64,000 nt of DNA from Nemertoderma westbladi (GCA_032718475.1 JAUCBJ010006746.1:19682-83681), one strand, 5' to 3'. Counted from the stretch's first letter, positions 14,402-56,179 are shown. Notes: generated by a model not told the origin, from the sequence alone. Made by a program: numbers and translations.

Positions 14402-14554
14402 TATAACTGTTGGAATTTAAACACGTCACTCGGCATATAAATTTAAATTGTTACGGTACCTAGTATTAACTAATTATAGTATATTATTATATGAATTATA
14501 TAAAAAATCCTCCCTTTATTTATATGAAATGATAATTATTTGTGTAAGATTATT

Positions 14555-17251: not shown

Positions 17252-17393
17252 CTACCTTTTCACCCCACCAATGAGCACTTTGCTGATAAAGTTTACTATC
17301 GCCGTAGAGGGCTGTTCGCTATCCATCTCCGCGAATACGTGGCACTCATTCACCGTAAACGACCCGAATTTACGAGCAACGAAACCAAAAATT
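17252..17393 (-). CDS. TNS: Tensin terminal coding exon (PTB domain C-terminus)
   Basis: Acceptor ttttttttcag|A. It encodes (K)[46 protein letters not shown], matching the tensin C-terminus (LFGFVARK...CHLFAE.D..QPASAIVNF.SKV). Its phase fits the exon ending at 56025. The exon is missing from the ORF track. Confidence 0.95.
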
Positions 17394-20300
17394 CTGAAAA
17401 AAAAATAAGAAAAATCGCATTAATTGATGAGAAAACTATAAACTGAGCTATCTGGGTCACCCAAACTCATCCTAAACTCTTTGTTTTCGTTGTAAAATAT
17501 TGGCAACGTAACATTGCCAAACCCAGTGCCTCCCTGCCTTAACAACGCTCTCTGTATCATCCTATTGTTACTTACTTAGCCTCCCTAACAACGCTGCCTG
17601 TAGCATCCTATTGTTACTTACTTAGCCTCCCTAACAGCGCTCCATGTAGCATCCTATTGTTACTTACTTAGCCTCCCTAACAACGCTCCATGTAGCATCC
17701 TATTGTTACTTACTTAGCCTCCCTAACAACGCTCCATGTAGCATCCCATTGTTACTTACTTAGCCTCCCTAACAACGCTCCATGTAGCATCCCATTGTTA
17801 CTTACTTAGCATCCCTAACAACGCTCTATGTAGCATCTTATTGTTACTTACTTAGCCTCCCTAACAACGCTCTCTGTAGCATCCTATTGTTACTTACTTA
17901 GCCTCCCTAACAACGCTCACTGTAGCATCCTATTGTTACTTACTTAGCCTCCCTAACAACGCTCTCTGTAGCATCCTATTGTTACTTACTTAGCCTCCCT
18001 AACAACGCTCCATGTAGCATCATATTGTTACTTACTTAGCCTCCCTAACAACGCTCCATGTAGCATCCTATTGTTACTTACTTAGCCTCCCTAACAACGC
18101 TCTCTGTAGCATCCTATTGTTACTTACTTAGCCTCCCTAACAACGCTCTCTGTATCATCCTATTGTTACTTACTTAGCCTCCCTAACAACGCTCCATGTA
18201 GCATCATATTGTTACTTACTTAGCCTCCCTAACAACGCTCCATGTAGCATCCTATTGTTACTTACTTAGCCTCCCTAACAACGCTCCCTGTAGCATCCTA
18301 TTGTTACTTACTTAGCCTCCCTAACAATGCTCCATGTAGCATCCTATTGTTACTTACTTAGCCTCCCTAACAACGCTCTCTGTATCATCCTATTGTTACT
18401 TACTTAGCCTCCCTAACAACGCTCCATGTAGCATCATATTGTTACTTACTTAGCCTCCCTAACAACGCTCCATGTAGCATCCTATTGTTACATACTTAGC
18501 CTCCCTAACAACGCTCCCTGTAGCATCCTATTGTTACTTACTTAGCCTCCCTAACAATGCTCCATGTAGCATCCTATTGTTACTTACTTAGCCTCCCTAA
18601 CAACGCTCCATGTAGCATCCTATTGTTACTTACTTAGCCTCCCTAACAACGCTCCCTGTAGCATCCTATTGTTACTTACTTAGCCTCCCTAACAACGCTC
18701 CCTGTAGCATCCTATTGTTACTTACTTAGCCTCCCTAACAACGCTCTCTGTAGCATCCTAATGTTACTTACTTAGCCTCCCTAACAACGCTCTCTGTAGC
18801 ATCCTAATGTTACTTACTTAGCCTCCCTAACAACGCTCCATGTAGCATCCTATTGTTACTTACTTAGCCTCCCTAACAACGCTCCATGTATCATCCTATT
18901 GTTACTTACTTAGCCTCCCTAACAACGCTCCATGTAGCATCCTATTGTTACTTACTTAGCCTCCCTAACAACGCTCCATGTAGCATCCCATTGTTACTTA
19001 CTTAGCCTCCCTAACAACGCTCCATGTAGCATCCTATTGTTACTTACTTAGCCTCCCTAACAACGCTCTCTGTAGCATCCTATTGTTACTTACTTAGCCT
19101 CCCTAACAACGCTCTCTGTATCATCCTATTGTTACTTACTTAGCCTCCCTAACAACGCTCCATGTAGCATCATATTGTTACTTACTTAGCCTCCCTAACA
19201 ACGCTCCATGTAGCATCCTATTGTTACTTACTTAGCCTCCCTAACAACGCTCCCTGTAGCATCCTATTGTTACTTACTTAGCCTCCCTAACAATGCTCCA
19301 TGTAGCATCCTATTGTTACTTACTTAGCCTCCCTAACAACGCTCTCTGTATCATCCTATTGTTACTTACTTAGCCTCCCTAACAACGCTCCATGTAGCAT
19401 CATATTGTTACTTACTTAGCCTCCCTAACAACGCTCCATGTAGCATCCTATTGTTACTTACTTAGCCTCCCTAACAACGCTCCCTGTAGCATCCTATTGT
19501 TACTTACTTAGCCTCCCTAACAATGCTCCATGTAGCATCCTATTGTTACTTACTTAGCCTCCCTAACAACGCTCCATGTAGCATCCTATTGTTACTTACT
19601 TAGCCTCCCTAACAACGCTCCCTGTAGCATCCTATTGTTACTTACTTAGCCTCCCTAACAACGCTCTCTGTAGCATCCTAATGTTACTTACTTAGCCTCC
19701 CTAACAACGCTCCATGTAGCATCCTATTGTTACTTACTTAGCCTCCCTAACAACGCTCCATGTAGCATCCTATTGTTACTTACTTAGCCTCCTTAACAAC
19801 GCTCCCTGTAGCATCCTATTGTTACTTACTTAGCCTCCCTAACAACGCTCCATGTAGCATCCTATTGTTACTTACTTAGCATCCCTAACAACGCTCTCTG
19901 TATCATCCTATTGTTACTTACTTAGCCTCCCTAACAACGCTCCCTGTAGCATCCTATTGTTACTTACTTAGCCTCCCTAACAACGCTCTCTGTAGCATCC
20001 TAATGTTACTTACTTAGCCTCCCTAACAACGCTCCATGTAGCATCCTATTGTTACTTACTTAGCCTCCCTAACAACGCTCCATGTAGCATCCTATTGTTA
20101 CTTACTTAGCCTCCTTAACAACGCTCCCTGTAGCATCCTATTGTTACTTACTTAGCCTCCCTAACAACGCTCCATGTAGCATCCTATTGTTACTTACTTA
20201 GCATCCCTAACAACGCTCTCTGTATCATCCTATTGTTACTTACTTAGCCTCCCTAACAACGCTCCCTGTAGCATCCTATTGTTACTTACTTAGCCTCCCT

Positions 20301-23300
20301 AACAACGCTCTCTGTAGCATCCTAATGTTACTTACTTAGCCTCCCTAACAACGCTCCATGTAGCATCCTATTGTTACTTACTTAGCCTCCCTAACAACGC
20401 TCCATGTAGCATCCTATTGTTACTTACTTAGCCTCCCTAACAACGCTCCATGTAGCATCCTATTGTTACTTACTTAGCCTCCCTAACAACGCTCTCTGTA
20501 TCATCCTATTGTTACTTACTTAGCCTCCTTAACAACGCTCCATGTAGCATCCTATTGTTACTTACTTAACCTCCCTAACAACGCTCCATGTAGCATCCTA
20601 TTGTTACTTACTTAGCCTCCCTAACAACGCTCTATGTAGCATCCTATTGTTACTTACTTAGCCTCCCTAACAACGCTCCATGTAGCATCCTATTGTTACT
20701 TACTTAGCCTCCCTAACAACGCTCTATGTAGCATCCTATTGTTACTTACTTAGCCTCCCTAACAACGCTCCATGTAGCATCCTATTGTTACTTACTTAGC
20801 CTCTCTAACAACGCTCCATGTAGCATCCTATTGTTACTTACTTAGCATCCCTAACAACGCTCTATGTAGCATCTTATTGTTACTTACTTAGCCTCCCTAA
20901 CAACGCTCCATGTAGCATCCCATTGTTACTTACTTAGCCTCCCTAACAACGCTCCATGTAGCATCCTATTGTTACTTACTTAGCCTCCCTAACAACGCTC
21001 ACTGTAGCATCCTATTGTTACTTACTTAGCCTCCCTAACAACGCTCCATGTAACATCCTATTGTTACTTACTTAGCCTCCCTAACAACGCTCCATGTAGC
21101 AGCCTATTGTTACTTACTTAGCCTCCCTAACAACGCTCTCTTTATCATCCTATTGTTACTTACTTAGCCTCCCTAACAACGCTATCTATAGCATCCTATT
21201 GTTACTTACTTAGCCTCCCTAACAACGCTCCATGTAGCATCCTATTGTTACTTACTTAGCCTCCCTAACAACGCTCTCTTTATCATCCTATTGTTACTTA
21301 CTTAGCCTCCCTAACAACGCTCTCTGTATCATCCTATTGTTACTTACTTAGCCTCCCTAACAACGCTCCATGTAGCATCCTATTGTTACTTACTTAGCCT
21401 CCCTAACAACGCTCACTGTAGCATCCTATTGTTACTTACTTAGCCTCCCTCACAACGCTCTCTGTAACATCCTATTGTTACTTACTTAGCCTCCCTAACA
21501 ACGCTCTCTGTAGCATCCTATTGTTACTTACTTAGCCTCCCTAACAACGCTCCATGTAGCATCCTATTGTTACTTACTTAGCCTCCCTAACAACGCTATC
21601 TATAGCATCCTATTGTTACTTACTTAGCCTCCCTAACAACGCTCCATGTAGCATCCTATTGTTACTTACTTAGCCTCCCTCACAACGCTCCATGTAGCAT
21701 CCTATTGTTACTTACTTAGCCTCCCTAACAACGCTCTCTGTATCATCCTATTGTTACTTACTTAGCCTCCCTAACAACGCTATCTATAGCATCCTATTGT
21801 TACTTACTTAGCCTCCCTAACAACGCTCCATGTAGCATCCTATTGTTACTTACTTAGCCTCCCTCACAACGCTCTCTGTATCATCCTATTGTTACTTACT
21901 TAGCCTCCCAAACAACGCTCTCTTTATCATCCTATTGTTACTTACTTAGCCTCCCTAACAACGCTCTCTGTATCATCCTATTGTTACTTACTTAGCCTCC
22001 CTCACAACGCTCTCTGTAACATCCTATTGTTACTTACTTAGCCTCCCTAACAACGCTCTCTGTAGCATCCTATTGTTACTTACTTAGCCTCCCTAACAAC
22101 GCTCCATGTAGCATCCTATTGTTACTTACTTAGCCTCCCTAACAACGCTATCTATAGCATCCTATTGTTACTTACTTAGCCTCCCTAACAACGCTCCATG
22201 TAGCATCCTATTGTTACTTACTTAGCCTCCCTAACAACGCTCTCTGTATCATCCTATTGTTACTTACTTAGCCTCCCTAACAACGCTCCATGTAGCATCC
22301 TATTGTTACTTACTTAGCCTCCCTAACAACGCTCTCTGTATCATCCTATTGTTACTTACTTAGCCTCCCTAACAACGCCCCATGTAGCATCCTATTGTTA
22401 CTTACTTAGCCTCCCTAACAACGCTCTCTGTAACATCCTATTGTTACTTACTTAGCCTCCCTAACAACGCTCTCTGTAGCATCCTATTGTTACTTACTTA
22501 GCCTCCCTAACAACGCTCCATGTAGCATCCTATTGTTACTTACTTAGCCTCCCTCACAACGCTCTCTGTAACATCCTATTGTTACTTACTTATCCTCCCT
22601 AACAACGCTCTCTGTAGCATCCTATTGTTACTTACTTAGCCTCCCTAACAACGCTCCATGTAGCATCCTATTGTTACTTACTTAGCCTCCCTAACAACGC
22701 TATCTGTAGCATCCTATTGTTACTTACTTAGCCTCCCTAACAACGCTCCATGTAGCATCCTATTGTTACTTACTTAGCCTCCCTAACAACGCTCCATGTA
22801 GCATCCTATTGTTACTTATTTAGCCTCCCTAACAACGCTCCATGTAGCATCCTATTGTTACTTACTTAACCTCCCTAACAACGCTCCATGTAGCATCCTA
22901 TTGTTACTTACTTAGCCTCCCTAACAACGCTCCCTGTAACATCCTATTGTTACTTACTTAGCCTCCCTAACAACGCTCTCTGTATCATCCTATTGTTACT
23001 TATTTAGCCTCCCTAACAACGCTCCATGTAGCATCCTATTGTTACTTACTTAGCATCCCTAACAACGCTCCATGTAGCATCCTATTGTTACTTATTTAGC
23101 ATCCCTAACAACGCTCTATGTAGCATCTTATTGTTACTTACTTAGCCTCCCTAACAACGCTCCATGTAGCATCCTATTGTTACTTACTTAGCATCCCTAA
23201 CAACGCTCTATGTAGCATCTTATTGTTACTTACTTAGCCTCCCTAACAACGCTCCATGTAGCATCCTATTGTTACTTACTTAGCATCCCTAACAACGCTC

Positions 23301-26300
23301 TATGTAGCATCTTATTGTTACTTACTTAGCCTCCCTAACAACGCTCTCTGTAGCATCCTATTGTTACTTACTTAGCCTCCCTAACAACGCTCTCTGTATC
23401 ATCCTATTGTTACTTACTTAGCCTCCCTAACAACGCTCCATGTAGCATCCTATTGTTACTTACTTAGCATCCCTAACAACGCTCTATGTAGCATCTTATT
23501 GTTACTTACTTAGCCTCCCTAACAACGCTCCATGTAGCATCCTATTGTTACTTACTTAACCTCCCTAACAACGCTCCATGTAGCATCCTATTGTTACTTA
23601 CTTAGCATCCCTAACAACGCTCTATGTAGCATCTTATTGTTACTTACTTAGCCTCCCTAACAACGCTCCATGTAGCATCCTATTGTTACTTACTTAGCAT
23701 CCCTAACAACGCTCTATGTAGCATCTTATTGTTACTTACTTAGCCTCCCTAACAACGCTCCATGTAGCATCCTATTGTTACTTACTTAGCCTCCCTAACA
23801 ACGCTCCATGTAGCATCCTATTGTTACTTATTTAGCCTCCCTAACAACGCTCCATGTAGCATCCTATTGTTACTTACTTAACCTCCCTAACAACGCTCCA
23901 TGTAGCATCATATTGTTACTTACTTAGCCTCCCTAACAACGCTCTCTGTAGCATCCTATTGTTACTTACTTAGCCTCCCTAACAACGCTCTCTGTAGCAT
24001 CCTATTGTTATTTACTTAGCCTCCCTAACAACGCTCCATGTAGCATCCCATTGTTACTTACTTAGCCTCCCTAACAACGCTCTCTGTATCATCTTATTGT
24101 TACTTACTTAGCCTCCCTAACAACGCTCCATGTAGCATCCTATTGTCACTTACTTAGCCTCCCTAACAACGCTCTCTGTATCATCCTATTGTCACTTACT
24201 TAGCCTCCCTAACAACGCTCTCTGTATCATCCTATTGTTACTTACTTAGCATCCCTAACAACGCTCTATGTAGCATCTTATTGTTACTTACTTAGCCTCC
24301 CTAACAACGCTCCATGTAGCATCCTATTGTTACTTACTTAGCCTCCCTAACAACGCTTTCTGTAACATCCTATTGTTACTTACTTAGCATCCCTAACAAC
24401 GCTCTATGTAGCATCTTATTGTTACTTACTTAGCCTCCCTAACAACGCTCCATGTAGCATCCTATTGTTACTTACTTAGCATCCCTAACAACGCTCTATG
24501 TAGCATCTTATTGTTACTTACTTAGCCTCCCTAACAACGCTCCATGTAGCATCCTATTGTTACTTACTTAGCCTCCCTAACAACGCTCCATGTAACATCC
24601 TATTGTTACTTACTTAGCCTCCCTAACAACGCTCCATGTAGCAGCCTATTGTTACTTACTTAGCCTCCCTAACAACGCTCCATGTAACATCCTATTGTTA
24701 CTTACTTAGCCTCCCTAACAACGCTCCATGTAGCAGCCTATTGTTACTTACTTAGCCTCCCTAACAACGCTCTCTTTATCATCCTATTGTTACTTACTTA
24801 GCCTCCCTAACAACGCTCTCTGTATCATCCTATTGTTACTTACTTAGCCTCCCTCACAACGCTCTCTGTAACATCCTATTGTTACTTACTTAGCCTCCCT
24901 AACAACGCTCTCTGTAGCATCCTATTGTTACTTACTTAGCCTCCCTAACAACGCTCCATGTAGCATCCTATTGTTACTTACTTAGCCTCCCTAACAACGC
25001 TATCTATAGCATCCTATTGTTACTTACTTAGCCTCCCTAACAACGCTCCATGTAGCATCCTATTGTTACTTACTTAGCCTCCCTAACAACGCTATCTATA
25101 GCATCCTATTGTTACTTACTTAGCCTCCCTAACAACGCTCTCTGTATCATCCTATTGTTACTTACTTAGCCTCCCTCACAACGCTCTCTGTAACATCCTA
25201 TTGTTACTTACTTAGCCTCCCTAACAACGCTCTCTGTAGCATCCTATTGTTACTTACTTAGCCTCCCTAACAACGCTCCATGTAGCATCCTATTGTTACT
25301 TACTTAGCCTCCCTAACAACGCTATCTATAGCATCCTATTGTTACTTACTTAGCATCCCTAACAACGCTCTATGTAGCATCTTATTGTTACTTACTTAGC
25401 CTCCCTAACAACGCTCCATGTAGCATCCTATTGTTACTTACTTAGCCTCCCTCACAACGCTCTCTGTAACATCCTATTGTTACTTACTTAGCCTCCCTAA
25501 CAACGCTCTCTGTAGCATCCTATTGTTACTTACTTAGCCTCCCTAACAACGCTCCATGTAGCATCCTATTGTTACTTACTTAGCCTCCCTCACAACGCTC
25601 TCTGTAACATCCTATTGTTACTTACTTATCCTCCCTAACAACGCTCTCTGTAGCATCCTATTGTTACTTACTTAGCCTCCCTAACAACGCTCCATGTAGC
25701 ATCCTATTGTTACTTACTTAGCCTCCCTAACAACGCTATCTGTAGCATCCTATTGTTACTTACTTACCCTCCCTAACAACGCTCCATGTAGCATCCTATT
25801 GTTACTTACTTAGCCTCCCTAACAACGCTCCATGTAGCATCCTATTGTTACTTATTTAGCCTCCCTAACAACGCTCCATGTAGCATCCTATTGTTACTTA
25901 CTTAACCTCCCTAACAACGCTCCATGTAGCATCCTATTGTTACTTACTTAGCCTCCCTAACAACGCTCCCTGTAACATCCTATTGTTACTTACTTAGCCT
26001 CCCTAACAACGCTCTCTGTATCATCCTATTGTTACTTATTTAGCCTCCCTAACAACGCTCCATGTAGCATCCTATTGTTACTTACTTAGCATCCCTAACA
26101 ACGCTCCATGTAGCATCCTATTGTTACTTATTTAGCATCCCTAACAACGCTCTATGTAGCATCTTATTGTTACTTACTTAGCCTCCCTAACAACGCTCCA
26201 TGTAGCATCCTATTGTTACTTACTTAGCATCCCTAACAACGCTCTATGTAGCATCTTATTGTTACTTACTTAGCCTCCCTAACAACGCTCCATGTAGCAT

Positions 26301-29300
26301 CCTATTGTTACTTACTTAGCATCCCTAACAACGCTCTATGTAGCATCTTATTGTTACTTACTTAGCCTCCCTAACAACGCTCCATGTAGCATCCTATTGT
26401 TACTTACTTAGCATCCCTAACAACGCTCTATGTAGCATCTTATTGTTACTTACTTAGCCTCCCTAACAACGCTCCATGTAGCATCCTATTGTTACTTACT
26501 TAACCTCCCTAACAACGCTCCATGTAGCATCCTATTGTTACTTACTTAGCATCCCTAACAACGCTCTATGTAGCATCTTATTGTTACTTACTTAGCCTCC
26601 CTAACAACGCTCCATGTAGCATCTTATTGTTACTTACTTAGCCTCCCTAACAACGCTCCATGTAGCATCCTATTGTTACTTACTTAACCTCCCTAACAAC
26701 GCTCCATGTAGCATCCTATTGTTACTTACTTAGCATCCCTAACAACGCTCTATGTAGCATCCTATTGTTACTTACTTAGCATCCCTAACAACGCTCTATG
26801 TAGCATCTTATTGTTACTTACTTAGCCTCCCTAACAACGCTCCATGTAGCATCCTATTGTTACTTACTTAACCTCCCTAACAACGCCCCATGTAGCATCC
26901 TATTGTTACTTACTTAGCATCCCTAACAACGCTCTCTGTAGCATCCTATTGTTACTTACTTAGCCTCCCTAACAACGCTCTCTGTAGCATCCTATTGTTA
27001 CTTTCTTAGCTTCCCTAACAACGCTCTATGTAGCATCTTATTGTTACTTACTTAGCCTCCCTAACAACGCTCCATGTAGCATCCTATTGTTACTTACTTA
27101 GCATCCCTAACAACGCTCTATGTAGCATCTTATTGTTACTTACTTAGCCTCCCTAACAACGCTCCATGTAGCATCCTATTGTTACTTACTTAGCCTCCCT
27201 AACAACGCTCCATGTAGCATCCTATTGTTACTTACTAGCCTCCCTAACAACGCTCCATGTAGCATCCTATTGTTACTTACTTAACCTCCCTAACAACGCT
27301 CCATGTAGCATCATATTGTTACTTACTTAGCCTCCCTAACAACGCTCTCTGTAGCATCCTATTGTTACTTACTTAGCCTCCCTAACAACGCTCTCTGTAG
27401 CATCCTATTGTTATTTACTTAGCCTCCCTAACAACGCTCCATGTAGCATCCCATTGTTACTTACTTAGCCTCCCTAACAACGCTCCATGTAGCATCCTAT
27501 TGTTACTTACTTAGCCTCCCTAACAACGCTCTCTGTATCATCTTATTGTTACTTACTTAGCCTCCCTAACAACGCTCCATGTAGCATCCTATTGTCACTT
27601 ACTTAGCCTCCCTAACAACGCTCTCTGTATCATCCTATTGTCACTTACTTAGCCTCCCTAACAACGCTCTCTGTATCATCCTATTGTTACTTACTTAGCA
27701 TCCCTAACAACGCTCTATGTAGCATCTTATTGTTACTTACTTAGCCTCCCTAACAACGCTCCATGTAGCATCCTATTGTTACTTACTTAGCCTCCCTAAC
27801 AACGCTTTCTGTAACATCCTATTGTTACTTACTTAGCATCCCTAACAACGCTCTATGTAGCATCTTATTGTTACTTACTTAGCCTCCCTAACAACGCTCC
27901 ATGTAGCATCCTATTGTTACTTACTTAGCATCCCTAACAACGCTCTATGTAGCATCTTATTGTTACTTACTTAGCCTCCCTAACAACGCTCCATGTAGCA
28001 TCCTATTGTTACTTTCTTAGCATCCCTAACAACGCTCTATGTAGCATCTTATTGTTACTTACTTAGCCTCCCTAACAACGCTCTCTTTATCATCCTATTG
28101 TTACTTACTTAGCCTCCCTAACAACGCTATCTGTATCATGCTATTGTTACTTACTTAGCCTCCCTAACAACGCTCCATGTAGCAGCCTATTGTTACTTAC
28201 TTAGCCTCCCTAACAACGCTCTCTTTATCATCCTATTGTTACTTACTTAGCCTCCCTAACAACGCTCCATGTAGCATCCTATTGTTACTTACTTAGCCTC
28301 CCTAACAACGCTCTCTGTAGCATCCTATTGTTACTTACTTAGCCTCCCTAACAACGCTCTCTGTATCATCCTATTGTTACTTACTTAGCCTCCCTAACAA
28401 CGCTCTCTGTAGCATCCTATTGTTACTTACTTAGCCTCCCTAACAACGCTCTCTGTATCATCCTATTGTTACTTACTTAGCCTCCCTCACAACGCTCTCT
28501 GTAACATCCTATTGTTACTTACTTAGCCTCCCTAAAAACGCTCTCTGTAGCATCCTATTGTTACTTACTTAGCCTCCCTAACAACGCTCCATGTAGCATC
28601 CTATTGTTACTTACTTAGCCTCCCTAACAACGCTATCTATAGCATCCTATTGTTACTTACTTAGCCTCCCTAACAACGCTCCATGTAGCATCCTATTGTT
28701 ACTTACTTAGCCTCCCTCACAACGCTCTCTGTAACATCCTATTGTTACTTACTTAGCCTCCCTAACAACGCTCTCTGTAGCATCCTATTGTTACTTACTT
28801 AGCCTCCCTAACAACGCTCCATGTAGCATCCTATTGTTACTTACTTAGCCTCCCTCACAACGCTCTCTGTAACATCCTATTGTTACTTACTTAGCCTCCC
28901 TAACAACGCTCTCTGTAGCATCCTATTGTTACTTACTTAGCCTCCCTAACAACGCTCCATGTAGCATCCTATTGTTACTTACTTAGCCTCCCTAACAACG
29001 CTATCTGTAGCATCCTATTGTTACTTACTTAGCCTCCCTAACAACGCTCCATGTAGCATCCTATTGTTACTTACTTAGCCTCCCTAACAACGCTCCATGT
29101 AGCATCCTATTGTTACTTATTTAGCCTCCCTAACAACGCTCCATGTAGCATCCTATTGTTACTTACTTAACCTCCCTAACAACGCTCCATGTAGCATCCT
29201 ATTGTTACTTACTTAGCCTCCCTAACAACGCTCCCTGTAACATCCTATTGTTACTTACTTAGCCTCCCTAACAACGCTCTCTGTATCATCCTATTGTTAC

Positions 29301-41300: not shown

Positions 41301-44300
41301 GTTACTTACTTAGCCTCCCTAACAACGCTCTCTGTATCATCCTATTGTTACTTACTTAGCCTCCCTAACAACGCTCCATGTAGCATCCTATTGTCACTTA
41401 CTTAGCCTCCCTAACAACGCTCTCTGTATCATCCTATTGTCACTTACTTAGCCTCCCTAACAACGCTCTCTGTATCATCCTATTGTTACTTACTTAGCCT
41501 CCCTAACAACGCTCTCTGTAGCATCCTATTGTTACTTACTTAGCCTCCCTAACAACGCTCCATGTAGCATCCTATTGTTACTTACTTAGCCTCCCTAACA
41601 ACGCTCTCTGTAGCATCCTATTGTTACTTACTTAGCCTCCCTAACAACGCTCTCTGTAGCATCCTATTGTTACTTACTTAGCCTCCCTAACAACGCTCTC
41701 ATGTAGCATCCTATTGTTACTTACTTAGCCTCCCTAACAACGCTCCATGTAGCATCCTATTGTTACTTACTTAGCCTCCCTAACAACGCTCTATGTAGCA
41801 TCCTATTGTTACTTACTTAGCCTCCCTAACAACGCTCCATGTAGCATCCTATTGTTACTTACTTAGCCTCCCTAACAACGCTCTATGTAGCATCCTATTG
41901 TTACTTACTTAGCCTCCCTAACAACGCTCCATGTAGCATCCTATTGTTACTTACTTAGCCTCCCTAACAACGCTCCATGTAGCATCCTATTGTTACTTAC
42001 TTAGCCTCCCTAACAACGCTCTCTGTAGCATCCTATTGTTACTTACTTAGCCTCCCTAACAACGCTCCATGTAGCATCCTATTGTTACTTACTTAGCCTC
42101 CCTAACAACGCTCTCTGTAGCATCCTATTGTTACTTACTTAGCCTCCCTAACAACGCTCCATGTAGCATCCTATTGTTACTTACTTAGCCTCCCTAACAA
42201 CGCTCTCTGTAGCATCCTATTGTTACTTACTTAGCCTCCCTAACAACGCTCCATGTAGCATCCTATTGTTACTTACTTAGCCTCCCTAACAACGCTCCAT
42301 GTAGCATCCTATTGTTACTTACTTAGCCTCCCTAACAACGCTCTCTGTATCATCCTATTGTTACTTACTTAGCCTCCCTAACAACGCTCTCTGTAGCATC
42401 CTATTGTTACTTACTTAGCCTCCCTAACAACGCTCCTGTAGCATCCTATTGTTACTTACTTAGCCTCCCTAACAACGCTCCATGTAGCATCCTATTGTTA
42501 CTTACTTAGCCTCCCTAACAACGCTCTCTGTAGCATCCTATTGTTACTTACTTAGCCTCCCTAACAACGCTCCATGTAGCATCCTATTGTTACTTACTTA
42601 GCCTCCCTAACAACGCTCTCTGTAGCATCCTATTGTTACTTACTTAGCCTCCCTAACAACGCTCCATGTAGCATCCTATTGTTACTTACTTAGCCTCCCT
42701 AACAACGCTCCATGTAGCATCCTATTGTTACTTACTTAGCCTCCCTAACAACGCTCTCTGTAGCATCCTATTGTTACTTACTTAGCCTCCCTAACAACGC
42801 TCCATGTAGCATCCTATTGTTACTTACTTAGCCTCCCTAACAACGCTCTATGTAGCATCCTATTGTTACTTACTTAGCCTCCCTAACAACGCTCCATGTA
42901 GCATCCTATTGTTACTTACTTAGCCTCCCTAACAACGCTCTATGTAGCATCCTATTGTTACTTACTTAGCCTCCCTAACAACGCTCCATGTAGCATCCTA
43001 TTGTTACTTACTTAGCCTCCCTAACAACGCTCCATGTAGCATCCTATTGTTACTTACTTAGCCTCCCTAACAACGCTCCATGTAGCATCCTATTGTTACT
43101 TACTTAGCCTCCCTAACAACGCTCCATGTAGCATCCTATTGTTACTTACTTAGCCTCCCTAACAACGCTCTCTGTAGCATCCTATTGTTACTTACTTAGC
43201 CTCCCTAACAACGCTCCATGTAGCATCCTATTGTTACTTACTTAGCCTCCCTAACAACGCTCCATGTAGCATCCTATTGTTACTTACTTAGCCTCCCTAA
43301 CAACGCTCCATGTAGCATCCTATTGTTACTTACTTAGCCTCCCTAACAACGCTCTATGTAGCATCCAATTGTTACTTACTTAGCCTCCCTAACAACGCTC
43401 CATGTAGCATCCTATTGTTACTTACTTAGCCTCCCTAACAACGCTCTATGTAGCATCCTATTGTTACTTACTTAGCCTCCCTAACAACGCTCCATGTAGC
43501 ATCCTATTGTTACTTACTTAGCATCCCTAACAACGCTCTATGTAGCATCTTATTGTTACTTACTTAGCCTCCCTAACAACGCTCCATGTAGCATCCTATT
43601 GTTACTTACTTAGCCTCCCTAACAACGCTCCATGTAGCATCCTATTGTTACTTATTTAGCCTCCCTAACAACGCTCCATGTATCATCCTATTGTTACTTA
43701 CTTAGCCTCCCTAACAACGCTCCATGTAGCATCCTATTGTTACTTACTTAACCTCCCTAACAACGCTCCATGTAGCATCCTATTGTTACTTACTTAGCAT
43801 CCCTAACAACGCTCTATGTAGCATCTTATTGTTACTTACTTAGCCTCCCTAACAACGCTCCATGTAGCATCCTATTGTTACTTACTTAGCATCCCTAACA
43901 ACGCTCTATGTAGCATCTTATTGTTACTTACTTAGCCTCCCTAACAACACCCCATGTAGCATCCTATTGTTATTTACTTAGCCTCCCTAACAACGCTCCA
44001 TGTAGCATCCCATTGTTACATACTTAGCCTCCCTAACAACGCTCTATGTAGCATCCTATTGTTACTTACTTAGCCTCCCTAACAACGCTCTCTGTATCAT
44101 CTTATTGTTACTTACTTAGCCTCCCTAACAACGCTCCATGTAGCATCCTATTGTCACTTACTTAGCCTCCCTAACAACGCTCTCTGTATCATCCTATTGT
44201 CACTTACTTAGCCTCCCTAACAACGCTCTCTGTATCATCCTATTGTTACTTACTTAGCCTCCCTAACAACGCTCTCTGTATCATCCTATTGTCACTTACT

Positions 44301-47300
44301 TAGCCTCCCTAACAACGCTCTCTGTAGCATCCTATTGTTACTTACTTAGCCTCCCTAACAACGCTCTCTGTAGCATCCTATTGTTATTTACTTAGCCTCC
44401 CTAACAACGCTCCCTGTAGCATCCTATTGTTACTTACTTAGCCTCCCTAACAACGCTCCATGTAGCATCCAATTGTTACGTACTTAGCCTCCCTAACAAC
44501 GCTCTCTGTATCATCTTATTGTTACTTACTTAGCCTCCCTAACAACGCTCCATGTAGCATCCTATTGTCACTTACTTAGCCTCCCTAACAACGCTCTCTG
44601 TATCATCCTATTGTCACTTACTTAGCCTCCCTAACAACGCTCTCTGTATCATCCTATTGTTACTTACTTAGCCTCCCTAACAACGCTCTCTGTATCATCC
44701 TATTGTCACTTACTTAGCCTCCCTAACAACGCTCCATGTAGCATCCTATTGTTACTTACTTAGCCTCCCTAACAACGCTCTCTGTATCATCCTATTGTCA
44801 CTTACTTAGCCTCCCTAACAACGCTTTCTGTAACATCCTATTGTTACTTACTTAGCCTCCCTAACAACGCTCTCTGTATCATCCTATTGTTACTTATTTA
44901 GCCTCCCTAACAACGCTCTCTTTATCATCCTATTGTTACTTACTTAGCCTCCCTAACAACGCTCTCTGTATCATGCTATTGTTACTTACTTAGCCTCCCT
45001 CACAACGCTCTCTGTAACATCCTATTGTTACTTACTTAGCCTCCCTAACAACGCTCTCTGTATCATCCTATTGTTACTTATTTAGCCTCCCTAACAACGC
45101 TCTCTTTATCATCCTATTGTCACTTACTTAGCCTCCCTAACAACGCTCCATGTAGCATCCTATTGTTACTTACTTAGCCTCCCTAACAACGCTCCATGTA
45201 GCATCCTATTGTTACTTACTTAGCCTCCCTAACAACGCTCTCTGTATCATCCTATTGTCACTTACTTAGCCTCCCTAACAACGCTTTCTGTAACATCCTA
45301 TTGTTACTTACTTAGCCTCCCTAACAACGCTCTCTGTATCATCCTATTGTTACTTACTTAGCCTCCCTAACAACGCTCTCTTTATCATCCTATTGTCACT
45401 TACTTAGCCTCCCTAACAACGCTCCATGTAGCATCCTATTGTTACTTACTTAGCCTCCCTAACAACGCTCCATGTAGCATCCTATTGTTACTTACTTAGC
45501 CTCCCTAACAACGCTCTCTGTATCATCCTATTGTCACTTACTTAGCCTCCCTAACAACGCTTTCTGTAACATCCTATTGTTACTTACTCAGCCTCCCTAA
45601 CAACGCTCTCTGTATCATCCTATTGTTACTTACTTAGCCTCCCTAACAACGCTCTCTGTATCATCCTATTGTCACTTACTTAGCCTCCCTAACAACGCTC
45701 CATGTAGCATCCTATTGTTACTTACTTAGCCTCCCTAACAACGCTCTCTGTATCATCCTATTGTCACTTACTTAGCCTCCCTAACAACGCTTTCTGTAAC
45801 ATCCTATTGTTACTTACTTAGCCTCCCTAACAACGCTCTCTGTATCATCCTATTGTTACTTATTTAGCCTCCCTAACAACGCTCTCTTTATCATCCTATT
45901 GTTACTTACTTAGCCTCCCTAACAACGCTCTCTGTATCATGCTATTGTTACTTACTTAGCCTCCCTCTCAACGCTCTCTGTAACATCCTATTGTTACTTA
46001 CTTAGCCTCCCTAACAACGCTCTCTGTAACATCCTATTGTTACTTACTTAGCCTCCCTAACAACGCTCCATGTAGCATCCTATTGTTACTTACTTAGCCT
46101 CCCTAACAACGCTCTCTGTAGCATCCTATTGTAACTTACTTAGCCTCCCTAACAACGCTCCATGTAGCATCCTATTGTTACTTACTTAGCCTCCCTAACA
46201 ACGCTCTCTGTATCATCCTATTGTTACTTATTTAGCCTCCCTAACAACGCTCTCTTTATCATCCTATTGTTACTTACTTAGCCTCCCTAACAACGCTCTC
46301 TGTATCATGCTATTGTTACTTACTTAGCCTCCCTAACAACGCTCCATGTAGCATCCTATTGTTACTTACTTAGCCTCCCTAACAACGCTCCATGTAGCAT
46401 CCTATTGTTACTTACTTAGCCTCCCTAACAACGCTCCCTGTAGCATCCTATTGTTACTTACTTAGCCTCCCTAACAACGCTCCATGTAGCATCCTATTGT
46501 TACTTACTTAGCCTCCCTAACAACGCTCCCTGTAGCATCCTATTGTTACTTACTTAGCCTCCCTAACAACGCTCCCTGTAGCATCCTATTGTTACTTACT
46601 TAGCCTCCCTAACAACGCTCTCTGTAGCATCCTATTGTTACTTACTTAGCCTCCCTAACAACGCTCTCTGTATCATCCTATTGTCACTTACTTAGCCTCC
46701 CTAACAACGCTCCCTGTAGCATCCTATTGTTACTTACTTAGCCTCCCTAACAACGCTCCCTGTAGCATCCTATTGTTACTTACTTAGCCTCCCTAACAAC
46801 GCTCCCTGTAGCATCCTATTGTTACTTACTTAGCCTCCCTAACAACGCTCTCTGTAGCATCCTATTGTTACTTACTTAGCCTCCCTAACAACGCTCCCTG
46901 TAGCATCCTATTGTTACTTACTTAGCCTCCCTAACAACGCTCCCTGTAGCATCCTATTGTTACTTACTTAGCCTCCCTAACAACGCTCCCTGTAGCATCC
47001 TATTGTTACTTACTTAGCCTCCCTAACAACGCTCTCTGTAGCATCCTATTGTTACTTACTTAGCCTCCCTAACAACGCTCCCTGTAGCATCCTATTGTTA
47101 CTTACTTAGCCTCCCTAACAACGCTCCCTGTAGCATCCTATTGTTACTTACTTAGCCTCCCTAACAACGCTCCCTGTAGCATCCTATTGTTACTTACTTA
47201 GCCTCCCTAACAACGCTCCATGTAGCATCCTATTGTTACTTACTTAGCCTCCCTAACAACGCTCCCTGTAGCATCCTATTGTTACTTACTTAGCCTCCCT

Positions 47301-50300
47301 AACAACGCTCCCTGTAGCATCCTATTGTTACTTACTTAGCCTCCCTAACAACGCTCTCTGTAGCATCCTATTGTTACTTACTTAGCCTCCCTAACAACGC
47401 TCTCTGTAGCATCCTATTGTCACTTACTTAGCCTCCCTAACAACGCTCCCTGTAGCATCCTATTGTTACTTACTTAGCCTCCCTAACAACGCTCCCTGTA
47501 GCATCCTATTGTTACTTACTTAGCCTCCCTAACAACGCTCCCTGTAGCATCCTATTGTTACTTACTTAGCCTCCCTAACAACGCTCCATGTAGCATCATA
47601 TTGTCACTTACTTAGCCTCCCTAACAACGCTCCATGTAGCATCCTATTGTTACTTACTTAGCCTCCCTAACAACGCTCCATGTAGCATCCTATTGTTACT
47701 TACTTAGCCTCCCTAACAACGCTCCCTGTAGCATCCTATTGTTACTTACTTAGCCTCCCTAACAACGCTCCATGTAGCATCCTATTGTTACTTACTTAGC
47801 CTCCCTAACAACGCTCCCTGTAGCATCCTATTGTTACTTACTTAGCCTCCCTAACAACGCTCCCTGTAGCATCCTATTGTTACTTACTTAGCCTCCCTAA
47901 CAACGCTCTCTGTAGCATCCTATTGTTACTTACTTAGCCTCCCTAACAACGCTCTCTGTATCATCCTATTGTCACTTACTTAGCCTCCCTAACAACGCTC
48001 CCTGTAGCATCCTATTGTTACTTACTTAGCCTCCCTAACAACGCTCCCTGTAGCATCCTATTGTTACTTACTTAGCCTCCCTAACAACGCTCCCTGTAGC
48101 ATCCTATTGTTACTTACTTAGCCTCCCTAACAACGCTCTCTGTAGCATCCTATTGTTACTTACTTAGCCTCCCTAACAACGCTCCCTGTAGCATCCTATT
48201 GTTACTTACTTAGCCTCCCTAACAACGCTCCCTGTAGCATCCTATTGTTACTTACTTAGCCTCCCTAACAACGCTCCCTGTAGCATCCTATTGTTACTTA
48301 CTTAGCCTCCCTAACAACGCTCTCTGTAGCATCCTATTGTTACTTACTTAGCCTCCCTAACAACGCTCCCTGTAGCATCCTATTGTTACTTACTTAGCCT
48401 CCCTAACAACGCTCCCTGTAGCATCCTATTGTTACTTACTTAGCCTCCCTAACAACGCTCCCTGTAGCATCCTATTGTTACTTACTTAGCCTCCCTAACA
48501 ACGCTCCATGTAGCATCCTATTGTTACTTACTTAGCCTCCCTAACAACGCTCCCTGTAGCATCCTATTGTTACTTACTTAGCCTCCCTAACAACGCTCCC
48601 TGTAGCATCCTATTGTTACTTACTTAGCCTCCCTAACAACGCTCTCTGTAGCATCCTATTGTTACTTACTTAGCCTCCCTAACAACGCTCTCTGTATCAT
48701 CCTATTGTCACTTACTTAGCCTCCCTAACAACGCTCCCTGTAGCATCCTATTGTTACTTACTTAGCCTCCCTAACAACGCTCCCTGTAGCATCCTATTGT
48801 TACTTACTTAGCCTCCCTAACAACGCTCCCTGTAGCATCCTATTGTTACTTACTTAGCCTCCCTAACAACGCTCCATGTAGCATCATATTGTCACTTACT
48901 TAGCCTCCCTAACAACGCTCTCTGTAGCATCCTATTGTTAATTACTTAGCCTCCCTAACAACGCTCCCTGTAGCATCCTATTGTTACTTACTTAGCCTCC
49001 CTAACAACGCTCCATGTAGCATCATATTGTCACTTACTTAGCCTCCCTAACAACGCTCTCTGTAGCATCCCATTGTTACTTACTTAGCCTCCCTAACAAC
49101 GCTCCCTGTAGCATCCTATTGTTACTTACTTAGCCTCCCTAACAACGCTCCCTGTAGCATCATATTGTTACTTACTTAGCCTCCCTAACAACGCTCCCTG
49201 TAGCATCCTATTGTTACTTACTTAGCCTCCCTAACAACGCTCCATGTAGCATCATATTGTCACTTACTTAGCCTCCCTAACAACGCTCTCTGTAGCATCC
49301 TATTGTTACTTACTTAGCCTCCCTAACAACGCTCCCTGTAGCATCCTATTGTTACTTACTTAGCCTCCCTAACAACGCTCCATGTAGCATCATATTGTCA
49401 CTTACTTAGCCTCCCTAACAACGCTCTCTGTAGCATCCCATTGTTACTTACTTAGCCTCCCTAACAACGCTCCCTGTAGCATCCTATTGTTACTTACTTA
49501 GCCTCCCTAACAACGCTCTCTGTATCATGCTATTGTTACTTACTTAGCCTCCCTCACAACGCTCTCTGTAACATCCTATTGTTACTTACTTAGCCTCCCT
49601 AACAACGCTCTCTGTATCATCCTATTGTTACTTATTTAGCCTCCCTAACAACGCTCTCTTTATCATCCTATTGTTACTTACTTAGCCTCCCTAACAACGC
49701 TCCCTGTAGCATCCTATTGTTACTTACTTAGCCTCCCTAACAACGCTCTCTGTAGCATCCTATTGTTACTTACTTAGCCTCCCTAACAACGCTCTCTGTA
49801 TCATCCTATTGTCACTTACTTAGCCTCCCTAACAACGCTCCCTGTAGCATCCTATTGTTACTTACTTAGCCTCCCTAACAACGCTCCCTGTAGCATCCTA
49901 TTGTTACTTACTTAGCCTCCCTAACAACGCTCCCTGTAGCATCCTATTGTTACTTACTTAGCCTCCCTAACAACGCTCTCTGTAGCATCCTATTGTTACT
50001 TACTTAGCCTCCCTAACAACGCTCTCTGTATCATCCTATTGTCACTTACTTAGCCTCCCTAACAACGCTTTCTGTAACATCCTATTGTTACTTACTTAGC
50101 CTCCCTAACAACGCTCTCTGTATCATCCTATTGTTACTTATTTAGCCTCCCTAACAACGCTCTCTTTATCATCCTATTGTCACTTACTTAGCCTCCCTAA
50201 CAACGCTTTCTGTAACATCCTATTGTTACTTACTTAGCCTCCCTAACAACGCTCTCTGTATCATCCTATTGTTACTTATTTAGCCTCCCTAACAACGCTC

Positions 50301-53300
50301 TCTTTATCATCCTATTGTTACTTACTTAGCCTCCCTAACAACGCTCTCTGTATCATGCTATTGTTACTTACTTAGCCTCCCTCACAACGCTCTCTGTAAC
50401 ATCCTATTGTTACTTACTTAGCCTCCCTAACAACGCTCTCTGTAGCATCCTATTGTTACTTACTTAGCCTCCCTAACAACGCTCCATGTAGCATCCTATT
50501 GTTACTTTCTTAGCCTCGCTAACAACGCTCTCTGTATCATCCTATTGTTACTTATTTAGCCTCCCTAACAACGCTCTCTTTATCATCCTATTGTTACTTA
50601 CTTAGCCTCCCTAACAACGCTCTCTGTATCATGCTATTGTTACTTACTTAGCCTCCCTAACAACGCTCTCTGTATCATCCTATTGTTACTTATTTAGCCT
50701 CCCTAACAACGCTCTCTTTATCATCCTATTGTTACTTACTTAGCCTCCCTAACAACGCTCTCTGTATCATGCTATTGTTACTTACTTAGCCTCCCTCACA
50801 ACGCTCTCTGTAACATCCTATTGTTACTTACTTAGCCTCCCTAACAACGCTCTCTGTAGCATCCTATTGTTACTTACTTAGCCTCCCTAACAACGCTCCA
50901 TGTAGCATCCTATTGTTACTTTCTTAGCCTCGCTAACAACGCTCTCTGTAACATCCTATTGTTACTTACTTAGCCTCCCTAACAACGCTCTCTGTAGCAT
51001 CCTATTGTTACTTACTTAGCCTCCCTAACAACGCTCCATGTAGCATCCTATTGTTACTTTCTTAGCCTCGCTAACAACGCTCTCTTTATCATCCTATTGT
51101 TACTTACTTAGCCTCCCTAACAACGCTCTCTGTATCATGCTATTGTTACTTACTTAGCCTCCCTCACAACGCTCTCTGTAACATCCTATTGTTACTTACT
51201 TAGCCTCCCTAACAACGCTCTCTGTAGCATCCTATTGTTACTTTCTTAGCCTCCCTAACAACGCTCCATGTAGCATCCTATTGTTACTTACTTAGCCTCC
51301 CTCACAACGCTCTCTGTAACATCCTATTGTTACTTACTTAGCCTCCCTAACAACGCTCTCTGTAGCATCCTATTGTTACTTTCTTAGCCTCCCTAACAAC
51401 GCTCCATGTAGCATCCTATTGTTACTTTCTTAGCCTCGCTAACAACGCTCTCTTTATCATCCTATTGTTACTTACTTAGCCTCCCTAACAACGCTCTCTG
51501 TATCATGCTATTGTTACTTACTTAGCCTCCCTCACAACGCTCTCTGTAACATCCTATTGTTACTTACTTAGCCTCCCTAACAACGCTCTCTGTAGCATCC
51601 TATTGTTACTTTCTTAGCCTCCCTAACAACGCTCCATGTAGCATCCTATTGTTACTTACTAGCCTCCCTAACAACGCTCCATGTAGCATCCTATTGTTAC
51701 TTACTTAGCCTCCCTAACAACGCTCCATGTAGCATCCTATTGTTACTTACTTAACCTCCCTAACAACGCTCCATGTAGCATCCTATTGTTACTTACTTAG
51801 CATCCCTAACAACGCTCTATGTAGCATCCTATTGTTACTTACTTAGCCTCCCTAACAACGCTCCATGTAGCATCCTATTGTTACTTACTTAACCTCCCTA
51901 ACAACGCTCCATGTAGCATCCTATTGTTACTTACTAGCCTCCCTAACAACGCTCCATGTAGCATCCTATTGTTACTTACTTAGCCTCCCTAACAACGCTC
52001 CATGTAGCATCCTATTGTTACTTACTTAACCTCCCTAACAACGCTCCATGTAGCATCCTATTGTTACTTACTTAGCCTCCCTAACAACGCTCCATGTAGC
52101 ATCCTATTGTTACTTTCTTAGCCTCCCTAACAACGCTCCATGTAGCATCCTATTGTTACTTTCTTAGCCTCGCTAACAACGCTCTCTTTATCATCCTATT
52201 GTTACTTACTTAGCCTCCCTAACAACGCTCTCTGTATCATGCTATTGTTACTTACTTAGCCTCCCTCACAACGCTCTCTGTAACATCCTATTGTTACTTA
52301 CTTAGCCTCCCTAACAACGCTCTCTGTAGCATCCTATTGTTACTTTCTTAGCCTCCCTAACAACGCTCCATGTAGCATCCTATTGTTACTTACTAGCCTC
52401 CCTAACAACGCTCCATGTAGCATCCTATTGTTACTTACTTAGCCTCCCTAACAACGCTCCATGTAGCATCCTATTGTTACTTACTTAACCTCCCTAACAA
52501 CGCTCCATGTAGCATCCTATTGTTACTTACTTAGCATCCCTAACAACGCTCCATGTAGCATCTTATTGTTACTTACTTAGCCTCCCTAACAACGCTCTAT
52601 GTAGCATCTTATTGTTACTTACTTAGCCTCCCTAACAACGCTCCATGTAGCATCCTATTGTTACTTACTTACCCTCCCTAACAACGCTCTCTGTAGCATC
52701 CTATTGTTACTTACTAGCCTCCCTAACAACGCTCCATGTAGCATCCTATTGTTACTTACTTAGCCTCCCTAACAACGCTCCATGTAGCATCCTATTGTTA
52801 CTTACTTAACCTCCCTAACAACGCTCCATGTAGCATCCTATTGTTACTTACTTAGCATCCCTAACAACGCTCTCTGTATCATCTTATTGTTACTTACTTA
52901 GCCTCCCTAACAACGCTCCATGTAGCATCCTATTGTCACTTACTTAGCCTCCCTAACGACGCTCTCTGTAGCATCCTATTGTTACTTACTTAGCCTCCCT
53001 AACAACGCTCTCTGTATCATCCTATTGTCACTTACTTAGCCTCCCTAACAACGCTCTCTGTAGCATCCTATTGTTACTTACTTAGCCTCACTAACAACGC
53101 TCTCTGTAGGATCCTATTGTTACTTACTTAGCCTCCCTAACAACGCTCTCTGTATCATGCTATTGTTACTTACTTAGCCTCCCTAACGACGCTCTCTGTA
53201 GCATCCTATTGTTACTTACTTAGCCTCCCTAACAACGCTCTCTGTATCATCCTATTGTCACTTACTTAGCCTCCCTAACAACGCTCTCTGTAGGATCCTA

Positions 53301-56024
53301 TTGTTACTTACTTAGCCTCACTAACAACGCTCCATGTAGCATCCTATTGTTACTTACTTAGCCTCCCTAACAACGCTCTCTGTATCATCCTATTGTCACT
53401 TACTTAGCCTCCCTAACAACGCTCTCTGTAGGATCCTATTGTTACTTACTTAACCTCCCTAACAACGCTCCATGTAGCATCCTATTGTTACTTACTTAGC
53501 CTCCCTAACAACGCTCCATGTAGCATCCTATTGTTACTTACTTAGCCTCCCTAACGACGCTCTCTGTAGCATCCTATTGTTACTTACTTAGCCTCCCTAA
53601 CAACGCTCTCTGTATCATCCTATTGTCACTTACTTAGCCTCCCTAACAACGCTCTCTGTAGGATCCTATTGTTACTTACTTAACCTCCCTAACAACGCTC
53701 CATGTAGCATCCTATTGTTACTTACTTAGCCTCCCTAACAACGCTCCATGTAGCATCCTATTGTTACTTTCTTAGCCTCCCTAACAACGCTCCATGTAGC
53801 ATCCTATTGTTACTTTCTTAGCCTCGCTAACAACGCTCTCTTTATCATCCTATTGTTACTTACTTAGCCTCCCTAACAACGCTCTCTGTATCATGCTATT
53901 GTTACTTACTTAGCCTCCCTCACAACGCTCTCTGTAACATCCTATTGTTACTTACTTAGCCTCCCTAACAACGCTCTCTGTAGCATCCTATTGTTACTTT
54001 CTTAGCCTCCCTAACAACGCTCCATGTAGCATCCTATTGTTACTTACTAGCCTCCCTAACAACGCTCCATGTAGCATCCTATTGTTACTTACTTAGCCTC
54101 CCTAACAACGCTCCATGTAGCATCCTATTGTTACTTACTTAACCTCCCTAACAACGCTCCATGTAGCATCCTATTGTTACTTACTTAGCATCCCTAACAA
54201 CGCTCTATGTAGCATCCTATTGTTACTTACTTAGCCTCCTTAACAACGCTCCATGTAGCATCCCATTGTTACTTACTTAGCCTCCCTAACAACGCTCTCT
54301 GTATCATCTTATTGTTACTTACTTAGCCTCCCTAACAACGCTCCATGTAGCATCCTATTGTCACTTACTTAGCCTCCCTAACGACGCTCTCTGTAGCATC
54401 CTATTGTTACTTACTTAGCCTCCCTAACAACGCTCTCTGTATCATCCTATTGTCACTTACTTAGCCTCCCTAACAACGCTCTCTGTAGCATCCTATTGTT
54501 ACTTACTTAGCCTCACTAACAACGCTCTCTGTAGGATCCTATTGTTACTTACTTAGCCTCCCTAACAACGCTCTCTGTATCATGCTATTGTTACTTACTT
54601 AGCCTCCCTAACGACGCTCTCTGTAGCATCCTATTGTTACTTACTTAGCCTCCCTAACAACGCTCTCTGTATCATCCTATTGTCACTTACTTAGCCTCCC
54701 TAACAACGCTCCATGTAGCATCCTATTGTCACTTACTTAGCCTCCCTAACGACGCTCTCTGTAGCATCCTATTGTTACTTACTTAGCCTCCCTAACAACG
54801 CTCTCTGTATCATCCTATTGTCACTTACTTAGCCTCCCTAACAACGCTCTCTGTAGGATCCTATTGTTACTTACTTAGCCTCACTAACAACGCTCTCTGT
54901 AGGATCCTATTGTTACTTACTTAGCCTCCCTAACAACGCTCTCTGTATCATGCTATTGTTACTTACTTAGCCTCCCTAACAACGCTCCATGTAGCATCCT
55001 ATTGTCACTTACTTAGCCTCCCTAACAACGCTCTATGTAGCATCCTATTGTTACTTACTTAGCCTCCCTAACAACGCTCTCTGTATCATCCTATTGTCAC
55101 TTACTTAGCCTCCCTAACAACGCTCTCTGTAGCATCCTATTGTTACTTACTTAGCCTCCCTAACAACGCTCTCTGTAGCATCCTATTGTCACTTACTTAG
55201 CCTCCCTAACAACGCTCTCTGTAGCATCCTATTGTTACTTACTTAGCCTCCCTAACAACGCTCTCTGTATCATCCTATTGTCACTTACTTAGACTCCCTA
55301 ACAATGCTCCATGTAGCATCCTATTGTCACTTACTTAGCCTCCCTAACAACGCTCTCTGTAGGATCCTATTGTCACTTACTTAGCATCCCTAACAACGCT
55401 CCATGTAGCATCCTATTGTCACTTACTTAGCCTCCCTAACAACGCTCTCTGTAGGATCCTATTGTTACTTACTTAGCCTCCCTAACAACGCTCTCTGTAT
55501 CATCCTATTGTCACTTACTTAGACTCCCTAACAATGCTCCATGTAGCATCCTATTGTCACTTACTTAGCCTCCCTAACAACGCTCTCTGTAGGATCCTAT
55601 TGTTACTTACTTAGCCTCCCTAACAACGCTCTCTGTATCATCCTATTGTCACTTACTTAGCCTCCCTAACAACGCTCACTGTAGCATCCTATTGTTACTT
55701 ACTTAGCCTCCCTAACAACGCTCCATGTAGCATCCTATTTATACTTACTTAGCCTCCCAAACAACGCACTCTGTAGCATCCTATTGTTACTTACTTAGCC
55801 TCCCTAACAACGCTCTCTGTAGCATCCTATTGTTACTTACTTAGCCTCCCTAACAACGCTCTCTGTAGCATCCTATTGTCACTTACTTAGCCTCCCTAAC
55901 AACGCTCTCTGTAGCATCCTATTGTTACTTACTTAGCCTCCCTAACAACGCTCTCTGTATCATCTTATTGTCACTTACTTAGCCTCCCTAACAACGCTCC
56001 CTGTAGCATCATATTGTTACTTAC
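17394..56024 (-). other. Giant last intron of tensin (38,631 bp, phase 2)
   Basis: Donor AA|GTAAGT at 56024 and acceptor TTTTCAG ending at 17394. Only ~145 bp (17394-17539) is non-satellite. Confidence 0.92.
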
Positions 56025-56058
56025 TTAGCCTCCCTAACAACGCTCCCTGTAGCATCCT
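17540..56058. repeat. 46-bp tandem satellite, ~837 copies, consensus cctccctaacaacgctc(ca/tc/ta/cc)tgtagcatcctattgttacttacttag
   Basis: The period of 46 is read directly (e.g. ctccctaaca at 17581 and 17627). The array is uninterrupted and head-to-tail, and its last 34 nt overlap the tensin exon. Confidence 0.99.
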
Positions 56059-56179
56059 TCCTAACCCATCGACGCTCCCTGGGATCCATCCCGCAGTAAG
56101 TGACCGTCTCTGTCTGGTAGTGTCGCCTTAGGAACTTCTTACGTTCGTTGTCTGTCAACGTAATCCCTTTAGAGTGTAC
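56025..56179 (-). CDS. TNS: Tensin penultimate coding exon (PTB domain)
   Basis: Acceptor ttgtctcgcag|G. It encodes VHSKGITLTDNERKKFLRRHYQTETVTYCGMDPRERRWVRKDATGSVVREA(K), cf. tensin [21 protein letters not shown]...DP.ER.W. Length is 155 nt and the donor is AA|gtaagt. Confidence 0.95.

Follow-up and report, generated by a model that had tools for sequence, protein, structure and literature searches.

Minisatellites whose first monomer lies across an exon–intron boundary have been described in the human genes F7, IFI6 (6-16), CBS (intron 13), LMNB2 and PDGF (Borensztajn et al. 2006, PMC1557585). According to that paper, intron 7 of F7 contains a 37-bp variable number tandem repeat (VNTR) of 5–9 copies, of which only the first donor is used, and mutagenesis shows that donors are selected upstream first. 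A single donor is also used in LMNB2 (10–15 copies) and PDGF (16–18 copies); two pseudo-sites are used in addition in IFI6, which has 25 of them, and two in CBS, which has 15–20 copies. Intron 18 of ABCA7, as presented by De Roeck et al. (2018, PMC5954066), contains a 25-bp VNTR of 12 to ~427 units (298–10,678 bp) that starts from the donor of exon 18, and use of the donor of the second unit gives an out-of-frame transcript. Satellite also fills the giant introns of genes on the Drosophila Y chromosome (Fingerhut et al. 2024, PMC11207136). Here we describe a 46-bp piece of the junction between exon 5 and intron 5 of a tensin gene that is repeated 838 times in a stretch of 64,000 nt from Nemertoderma westbladi (GCA_032718475.1, JAUCBJ010006746.1:19682–83681; hereafter the window, in which all positions are counted). 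Most probably, the piece was amplified in place and its copies are tolerated passengers, not a device.

Structure of the array

In the window, Tandem Repeats Finder (TRF) reported a single array at 17540–56058, with a period of 46, 837.5 copies, 94% matches and a score of 66177. Wraparound alignment resolved it into 838 monomers, namely 837 full-length ones and a partial last one, in agreement with the ~837 copies given for the same interval in an initial annotation of the window. The main features are as follows; X1 to X4 are public sequencing runs, introduced below.

56025..56179, minus: tensin exon 5, the penultimate of the six visible, whose phase-2 donor is used (frame, Pfam, structures, X3 contig)
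17394..56024, minus: intron 5, 38,631 nt (frame)
17540..56058, minus: 46-bp tandem array, 838 monomers (TRF and wraparound alignment)
17394..17575, minus: GT..AG stretch of 182 nt between the true acceptor and the last pseudo-donor that is intact, which could act as a dead-end competitor (geometry)
17394..17539, minus: final 146 nt of the intron, unique sequence that includes the acceptor, with a pyrimidine fraction of 0.94 (DNA contigs of X1, X2 and X4 bridge it)
17252..17393, minus: terminal coding exon 6 with the stop codon (frame, Pfam, structures)

The monomer is exactly 46 nt long in 826 of the 838 cases, and the monomers fall into 101 distinct variants with a mean pairwise divergence of 5.8%. 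On the minus strand, each consists of 32 nt that are identical or nearly identical to the end of the penultimate exon, followed by 14 nt of the intron start, as the initial annotation had proposed. The first monomer (56056–56011) is the genuine end of exon 5 with its donor, and here too the annotation was right, except that the last letter is T and not G. The monomer that it presented as typical occurs in 43 copies, against 140 for the commonest variant.

Counting the authentic site, the GT is kept in 797 of the 838 monomers, positions −3 to +6 of the donor are the same as in the authentic site in 775 (leaving 774 pseudo-donors), and positions −3 to +8 are the same in 715. The 32 nt of the exon are reproduced exactly in 57 monomers, 44 of which lie within monomers 133–209. 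Exact repeats are nested in the array at lags of 7, 11, 28, 66, 71 and 135–137 monomers, and the longest exact duplicate spans 23 monomers (~1 kb). When the first 24 nt of the monomer were searched with up to four differences allowed, no copy was found elsewhere in the window, and the 24-nt pattern had no match among metagenome contigs of the Joint Genome Institute (JGI), where the organism need not occur.

Splicing across the array

A search of public runs with the last exon and the 3' untranslated region (UTR) gave eight runs, of which four, from three studies, hold the sequence; none of these holders is on record as RNA, and the search says nothing on expression. Their contigs were placed on positions 16900–17610. 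Run X3 gave one contig, of 1680 nt and depth 42, which covers the last exon up to 17393 and then continues at 17576, where the last full monomer resembles the exon, across a 182-nt gap bounded by GT..AG on the minus strand. The contig has one mismatch to this monomer, at the only letter there that differs between the monomer and exon 5. Its loose end of 255 nt fits nothing in the 16900–17610 stretch, and the 30 letters of it that are shown are unique exon 5 sequence (56059–56088). Because both the mismatch and the loose end carry the letters of exon 5, the X3 contig joins the donor at 56025 to 17393. The first donor is therefore the one from which tensin is spliced over the array, in one contig from one study, and the junction is the one named in the initial annotation.

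None of the X3 contigs covers 17404–17571, in the unique part of the intron, or consists of monomers, and the joint 17393→17576 was not seen in the three DNA-like runs X1, X2 and X4. X3 thus appears to behave as RNA rather than as a retrocopy, the run type in its record being a guess.

The true acceptor of intron 5 lies 146 nt beyond the array, close to the ~145 bp annotated initially, with the terminal PTB exon next to it as proposed, and it is the only acceptor with a pyrimidine tract in the intron. Although the monomers end in TAG in 708 of 837 cases, these ends are poor acceptors: pyrimidines make up a fraction of 0.29 and the acceptor zone contains two AG, whereas the six real tensin acceptors have fractions of 0.59–0.94 and no AG in the zone. 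The sense strand of the 38,631-nt intron contains no AATAAA or ATTAAA. We discounted the absence of AATAAA as a sign of selection, as a single missing point mutation explains it.

On read-through of the first donor, a stop codon is reached one codon further on, and use of any later donor would give this immediate stop and cost the PTB domain its 46 C-terminal residues. With donor 2, the stop would precede the junction by 42 nt, and with later donors by at least 88 nt. The donor columns of the monomer are not significantly more conserved than its other columns (P 0.16 and 0.13), so there is no sign of selection on the copies. Structural masking of the pseudo-donors was also considered and rejected: the predicted unpaired probability is 0.40 at the authentic donor and 0.38–0.79 (mean 0.55) at 42 sampled pseudo-donors, that is, the copies are predicted to be no more hidden than the authentic site.

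The tensin gene

Upstream of exon 5, four further exons were recognized on the minus strand, and candidate polyadenylation motifs follow exon 6.

63614..63787, minus: first visible exon (exon 1), covering the linker and the beginning of SH2 (splice frame)
58932..59072, minus: exon 2, SH2, Pfam E 3e-4 (splice frame and Pfam)
58337..58519, minus: exon 3, end of the SH2 region (splice frame)
57536..57747, minus: exon 4, start of the PTB region (splice frame)
16425, 16320 and 16057, minus: AATAAA candidates in the 3' UTR

All six exons have GT-AG ends and form a single open frame, with the stop codon in the last one, as expected for the intact and in-phase exons of the initial annotation. Introns 1–5 measure 4541, 412, 589, 1356 and 38,631 nt; introns 1–4 are supported by sequence and frame, the contigs of the runs having been placed on the region of the last exon. 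In the Pfam scan, exon 5 matches positions 46–83 of the PTB domain and exon 6 positions 85–130, while three of the six exon translations match nothing when taken alone. Among solved structures, exons 5 and 6 find their best matches in PTB domains of tensins (E 5e-15 and 1e-14, respectively), and all five structures matched by either exon belong to the tensin family. The gene has the C-terminal SH2 domain and, after it, the tensin-type PTB domain that identify a tensin. The named top protein matches of exon 5 are tensins of invertebrates and vertebrates with up to ~65–70% identity, none of them from a close relative. A word-based search with exon 5 among longer proteins yielded five candidates, none of which passed.

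The array in independent samples

Contigs of X1, X2 and X4, which come from two samples and two studies, start in the last exon, cross the unique end of the intron and reach the monomers; at the opposite side, a 212-nt contig of X1 connects exon 5 with the array. Each of the four runs shows differences from the window at positions that they share, so the runs do not just repeat the haplotype of the window. The contiguity assumed in the initial annotation is supported to the extent that both flanks enter the array in the DNA of other samples, but nothing spans it.

For four of the five monomer contigs of X1, the depth relative to that of the flank was 27, 42, 137 and 152, against predictions of 37, 82, 249 and 274 made from 31-mer counts in the window, with the assignment of variants inferred. 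The values amount to 0.5–0.75 of what the array of the window would give, in a measure that is unreliable between runs. Summed contig depth was rejected as a measure of copy number, as it was 340 and 50,942 in two runs of one sample, and with such a difference, depth is only a rough guide. As such, the X1 depth suggests that another sample has several hundred copies, without a large excess of dispersed ones.

In the X4 contig that leads from the last exon into the array, the terminal partial monomer is a variant that differs from the window at 17551–17557, which hints at turnover at this edge.

Origin of the repeat

The search with the protein gave 150 hits, 91 of which could be parsed between a conserved W and an FGF-type motif. 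The loop between them has 9 residues in 40 of these hits, 8 in 12, 14 in 11 and 15 in 14; that of the present gene has 14. The residue before the FGF-type motif is K or R in 86 of the 91. Judged by sequence, the repeated 32 nt thus encode a normal tensin loop of typical invertebrate length, and the exon therefore predates the repeat.

Among 38 related metagenome loci, 30, probably transcripts for the most part, are unbroken at the point corresponding to the exon 5/6 junction, one is cut off and seven are interrupted. In four of the seven (L008, L017, L026 and L037), a phase-2 intron of 66, 104, 308 or 689 nt lies one codon upstream, and the junction repeat is absent from all four. With such introns one codon away, an old short intron near this position is likely. 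Together with the ordinary loop, this agrees with the exon-first part of the origin in situ put forward initially. As a separate observation, the last intron of the tensin PTB region is placed elsewhere in L027, L028 and L034, and this variation in position suggests intron sliding or turnover in the PTB loop.

The ~200-fold inflation of a short intron that the initial annotation had postulated is plausible in view of the related introns of 66–689 nt. The figure itself does not follow: since the last monomer of the array is partial, either some sequence was deleted or a templated insertion was involved, and how long the ancestral intron was is not readable from the sequence. If nothing was lost, the ancestral intron may have had ~160 nt. 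The structured internal repeats, which reach 23 monomers at most, are of the kind that would be expected if the array grew by local duplications in repeated rounds. A protein with six matched stretches (P0028), taken up as a possible second amplified tensin exon, was rejected as a false hit to a Flavobacterium repeat protein.

Proposed mechanism

We propose that the array was born by a local duplication at the exon 5 donor and grew by slippage or unequal exchange, to which the nested lags would correspond. At usual polymerase speeds, the first donor would wait some 10–25 minutes for its acceptor. Being transcribed first, it would be bound first and so be committed. It is also the only donor with an upstream acceptor, at the distance of a 155-nt exon, that could serve to define the exon, and the two properties combined would let the first donor win. 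Transcripts from later donors would be truncated or degraded, owing to the stop codon one codon past the exon end, and hence would not be seen. The choice would be made upstream first, by analogy with what was shown for F7.

If this is true, a gene bearing such an array still yields a correct mRNA in an animal, and the upstream-first choice of donors would extend from the 5–9 copies of human F7 to ~775 identical donors spread over 38.6 kb. The locus is suited to testing co-transcriptional commitment against exon definition in the choice of 5' splice sites, and it shows one simple way in which a short intron becomes long without new sequence. A further proposal, which we consider rather improbable, joins two statements: that we know of no natural case in which first-donor commitment is put to a more extreme test, the spliceosome keeping to the first of 775 identical donors over 38.6 kb even with the last one just 182 nt away from the acceptor, and that array length may be a heritable dial that diverts transcripts to the stop and so sets the dose of tensin.

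Alternative explanations

A dial of this kind can also be put forward by itself, with array length diverting transcripts to later donors, and so to stop and decay, or delaying splicing, as proposed for ABCA7, where VNTR length affects splicing (PMC5954066). The last intact pseudo-donor, 182 nt from the true acceptor, and the 774 pseudo-donors equal to the authentic one would provide the means, and the X1 depth, which suggests fewer copies than in the window, hints at length polymorphism. However, no alternative product was present among the X3 contigs (n = 1 contig) and the donor columns are not significantly more conserved, and we regard regulation by the array as unlikely. The stepwise removal of the intron, recursive or nested, might draw on the 708 monomers that end in TAG right before the next exon-like unit, but these lack a pyrimidine tract and the monomer has no AG/GT ratchet point. 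The whole intron contains 28 AGGT, which come from a variant and have no pyrimidine tract either, so that no ratchet point with such a tract was found in intron 5. Moreover, stepwise removal would leave a frameshifting insert of 32 nt that is absent from the X3 contig; this explanation is extremely unlikely.

That an existing dispersed satellite was inserted and supplied the exon end and donor could account for the partial monomer at the end of the array, and the encoded loop is variable among tensins. Yet the length of this loop is typical of invertebrates and its last residue is the conserved K/R, a phase-2 intron lies one codon off in related genes, the monomer is found nowhere else in the window, and the X1 depth, being no higher than one array predicts, would leave no room for many extra copies in that sample. 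We give an inserted satellite hardly any credence. Only slightly less improbable is an artefact of assembly, either a mis-join or an inflated copy number. The X1 depth of ~0.5–0.75 of the copy number in the window, and the lack of a spanning read or contig, would be compatible with it; both flank junctions, however, occur in independent DNA contigs, the spliced contig makes the flanks consecutive exons of one gene, and the array shows structured internal variation.

In-place amplification with tolerated copies is thus preferred, and several observations weigh against it. The spliced data come from X3, a run of one study listed as 'DNA?' by guess, and as contigs drop rare forms, X3 is blind to minor use of donors 2, 3 and so on. 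The fifth X1 depth comparison misfits (11 vs. 154), the summed depths of two runs of one sample are more than 100-fold apart, and no read or contig among the runs examined spans the whole array. The related intron lies one codon off and not at the same position, and in three of the seven interrupted loci the intron is elsewhere. Lastly, IFI6, CBS and ABCA7 do use nearby pseudo-donors (PMC1557585, PMC5954066).

Other features of the window

Two elements lie in other introns of the tensin gene. Intron 1 contains a 32-bp minisatellite at 59242–61658, of 15.7 and 26.2 copies, which is interrupted by a 1.1-kb element made of 15-bp units, whose ends are inverted repeats of 51 nt (59738–59788 and 60790–60840, 96% identical); from its structure, the element resembles a miniature inverted-repeat transposable element (MITE) or a foldback element. 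In intron 4, two short frames at 56921–57342 (minus) contain a YADD motif and resemble a broken reverse-transcriptase piece of a long interspersed nuclear element (LINE).

Downstream of the gene, an uninterrupted open reading frame (ORF) of 855 aa at 4604–7228 (minus) has THAP, P-element transposase helix-turn-helix, RNase H-like and, below the cut-off, GTP-binding domains, and apparently encodes an intact transposase of the THAP/P-element type. A single-frame ORF of 583 aa at 12647–14416 (minus) is charged and rich in Arg, Lys and Ser in its N-terminal half, has many hydrophobic segments after it, and shows no Pfam match at E 0.01. At 1–1442 (minus) there are two overlapping ORFs, one of 284 aa, with no Pfam match, and one of 218 aa, open at the window end and coiled-coil-like with Ala/Arg repeats. 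Upstream of them is a two-copy tandem of 289 bp (2743–3324), and the ORFs and tandem are possibly part of a mobile element.

Comparison with known systems

An intron of 38.6 kb is of unremarkable size for many animals, and the repeats in Drosophila Y introns are simple satellites unrelated to a splice junction. The initial annotation had taken those introns as its comparison, which is poorer than that with the human junction VNTRs. Common to the tensin intron and those of Drosophila are the bulk of tandem repeat and the likely importance of co-transcriptional splicing, whereas the Drosophila genes exceed 4 Mb, according to Fingerhut et al. (2024, PMC11207136).

We found no account of this tensin array, of a gene-derived satellite of this type, or of a larger donor-repeat case in a literature search outside of which most subscription papers lay. 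The annotation's suggestion that a monomer made of a host exon end plus donor may be without precedent does not hold in view of F7, IFI6, CBS, LMNB2 and PDGF (PMC1557585) and ABCA7 (PMC5954066). As in the first five, the first monomer of the tensin array spans the exon–intron boundary of the host gene, the identical donor is reiterated within the intron, and the most upstream donor is used, here in one spliced contig from one study. The differences from them are the number of copies, 838 compared with 5–25, the exon letters in each monomer, 32 nt compared with 4 nt in F7, and the host, an invertebrate-type tensin gene instead of human genes.

ABCA7 is similar in having a very long donor-repeating VNTR that starts at the donor of the exon. 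In its description, the unit begins at the GT and no exon letters are listed, whereas the tensin monomer holds 32 exon nt; the intron has grown eightfold and a link to phenotype is shown there and not here; and the VNTR reaches at most about half of the copies and 0.28 of the length of the tensin array (PMC5954066). The tensin array has ~2 times as many copies as the longest ABCA7 allele and is 3.6 times as long, and it is the largest of the known junction-donor kind that we found. Its new aspect is scale only, as this kind of element is already described in several human genes.

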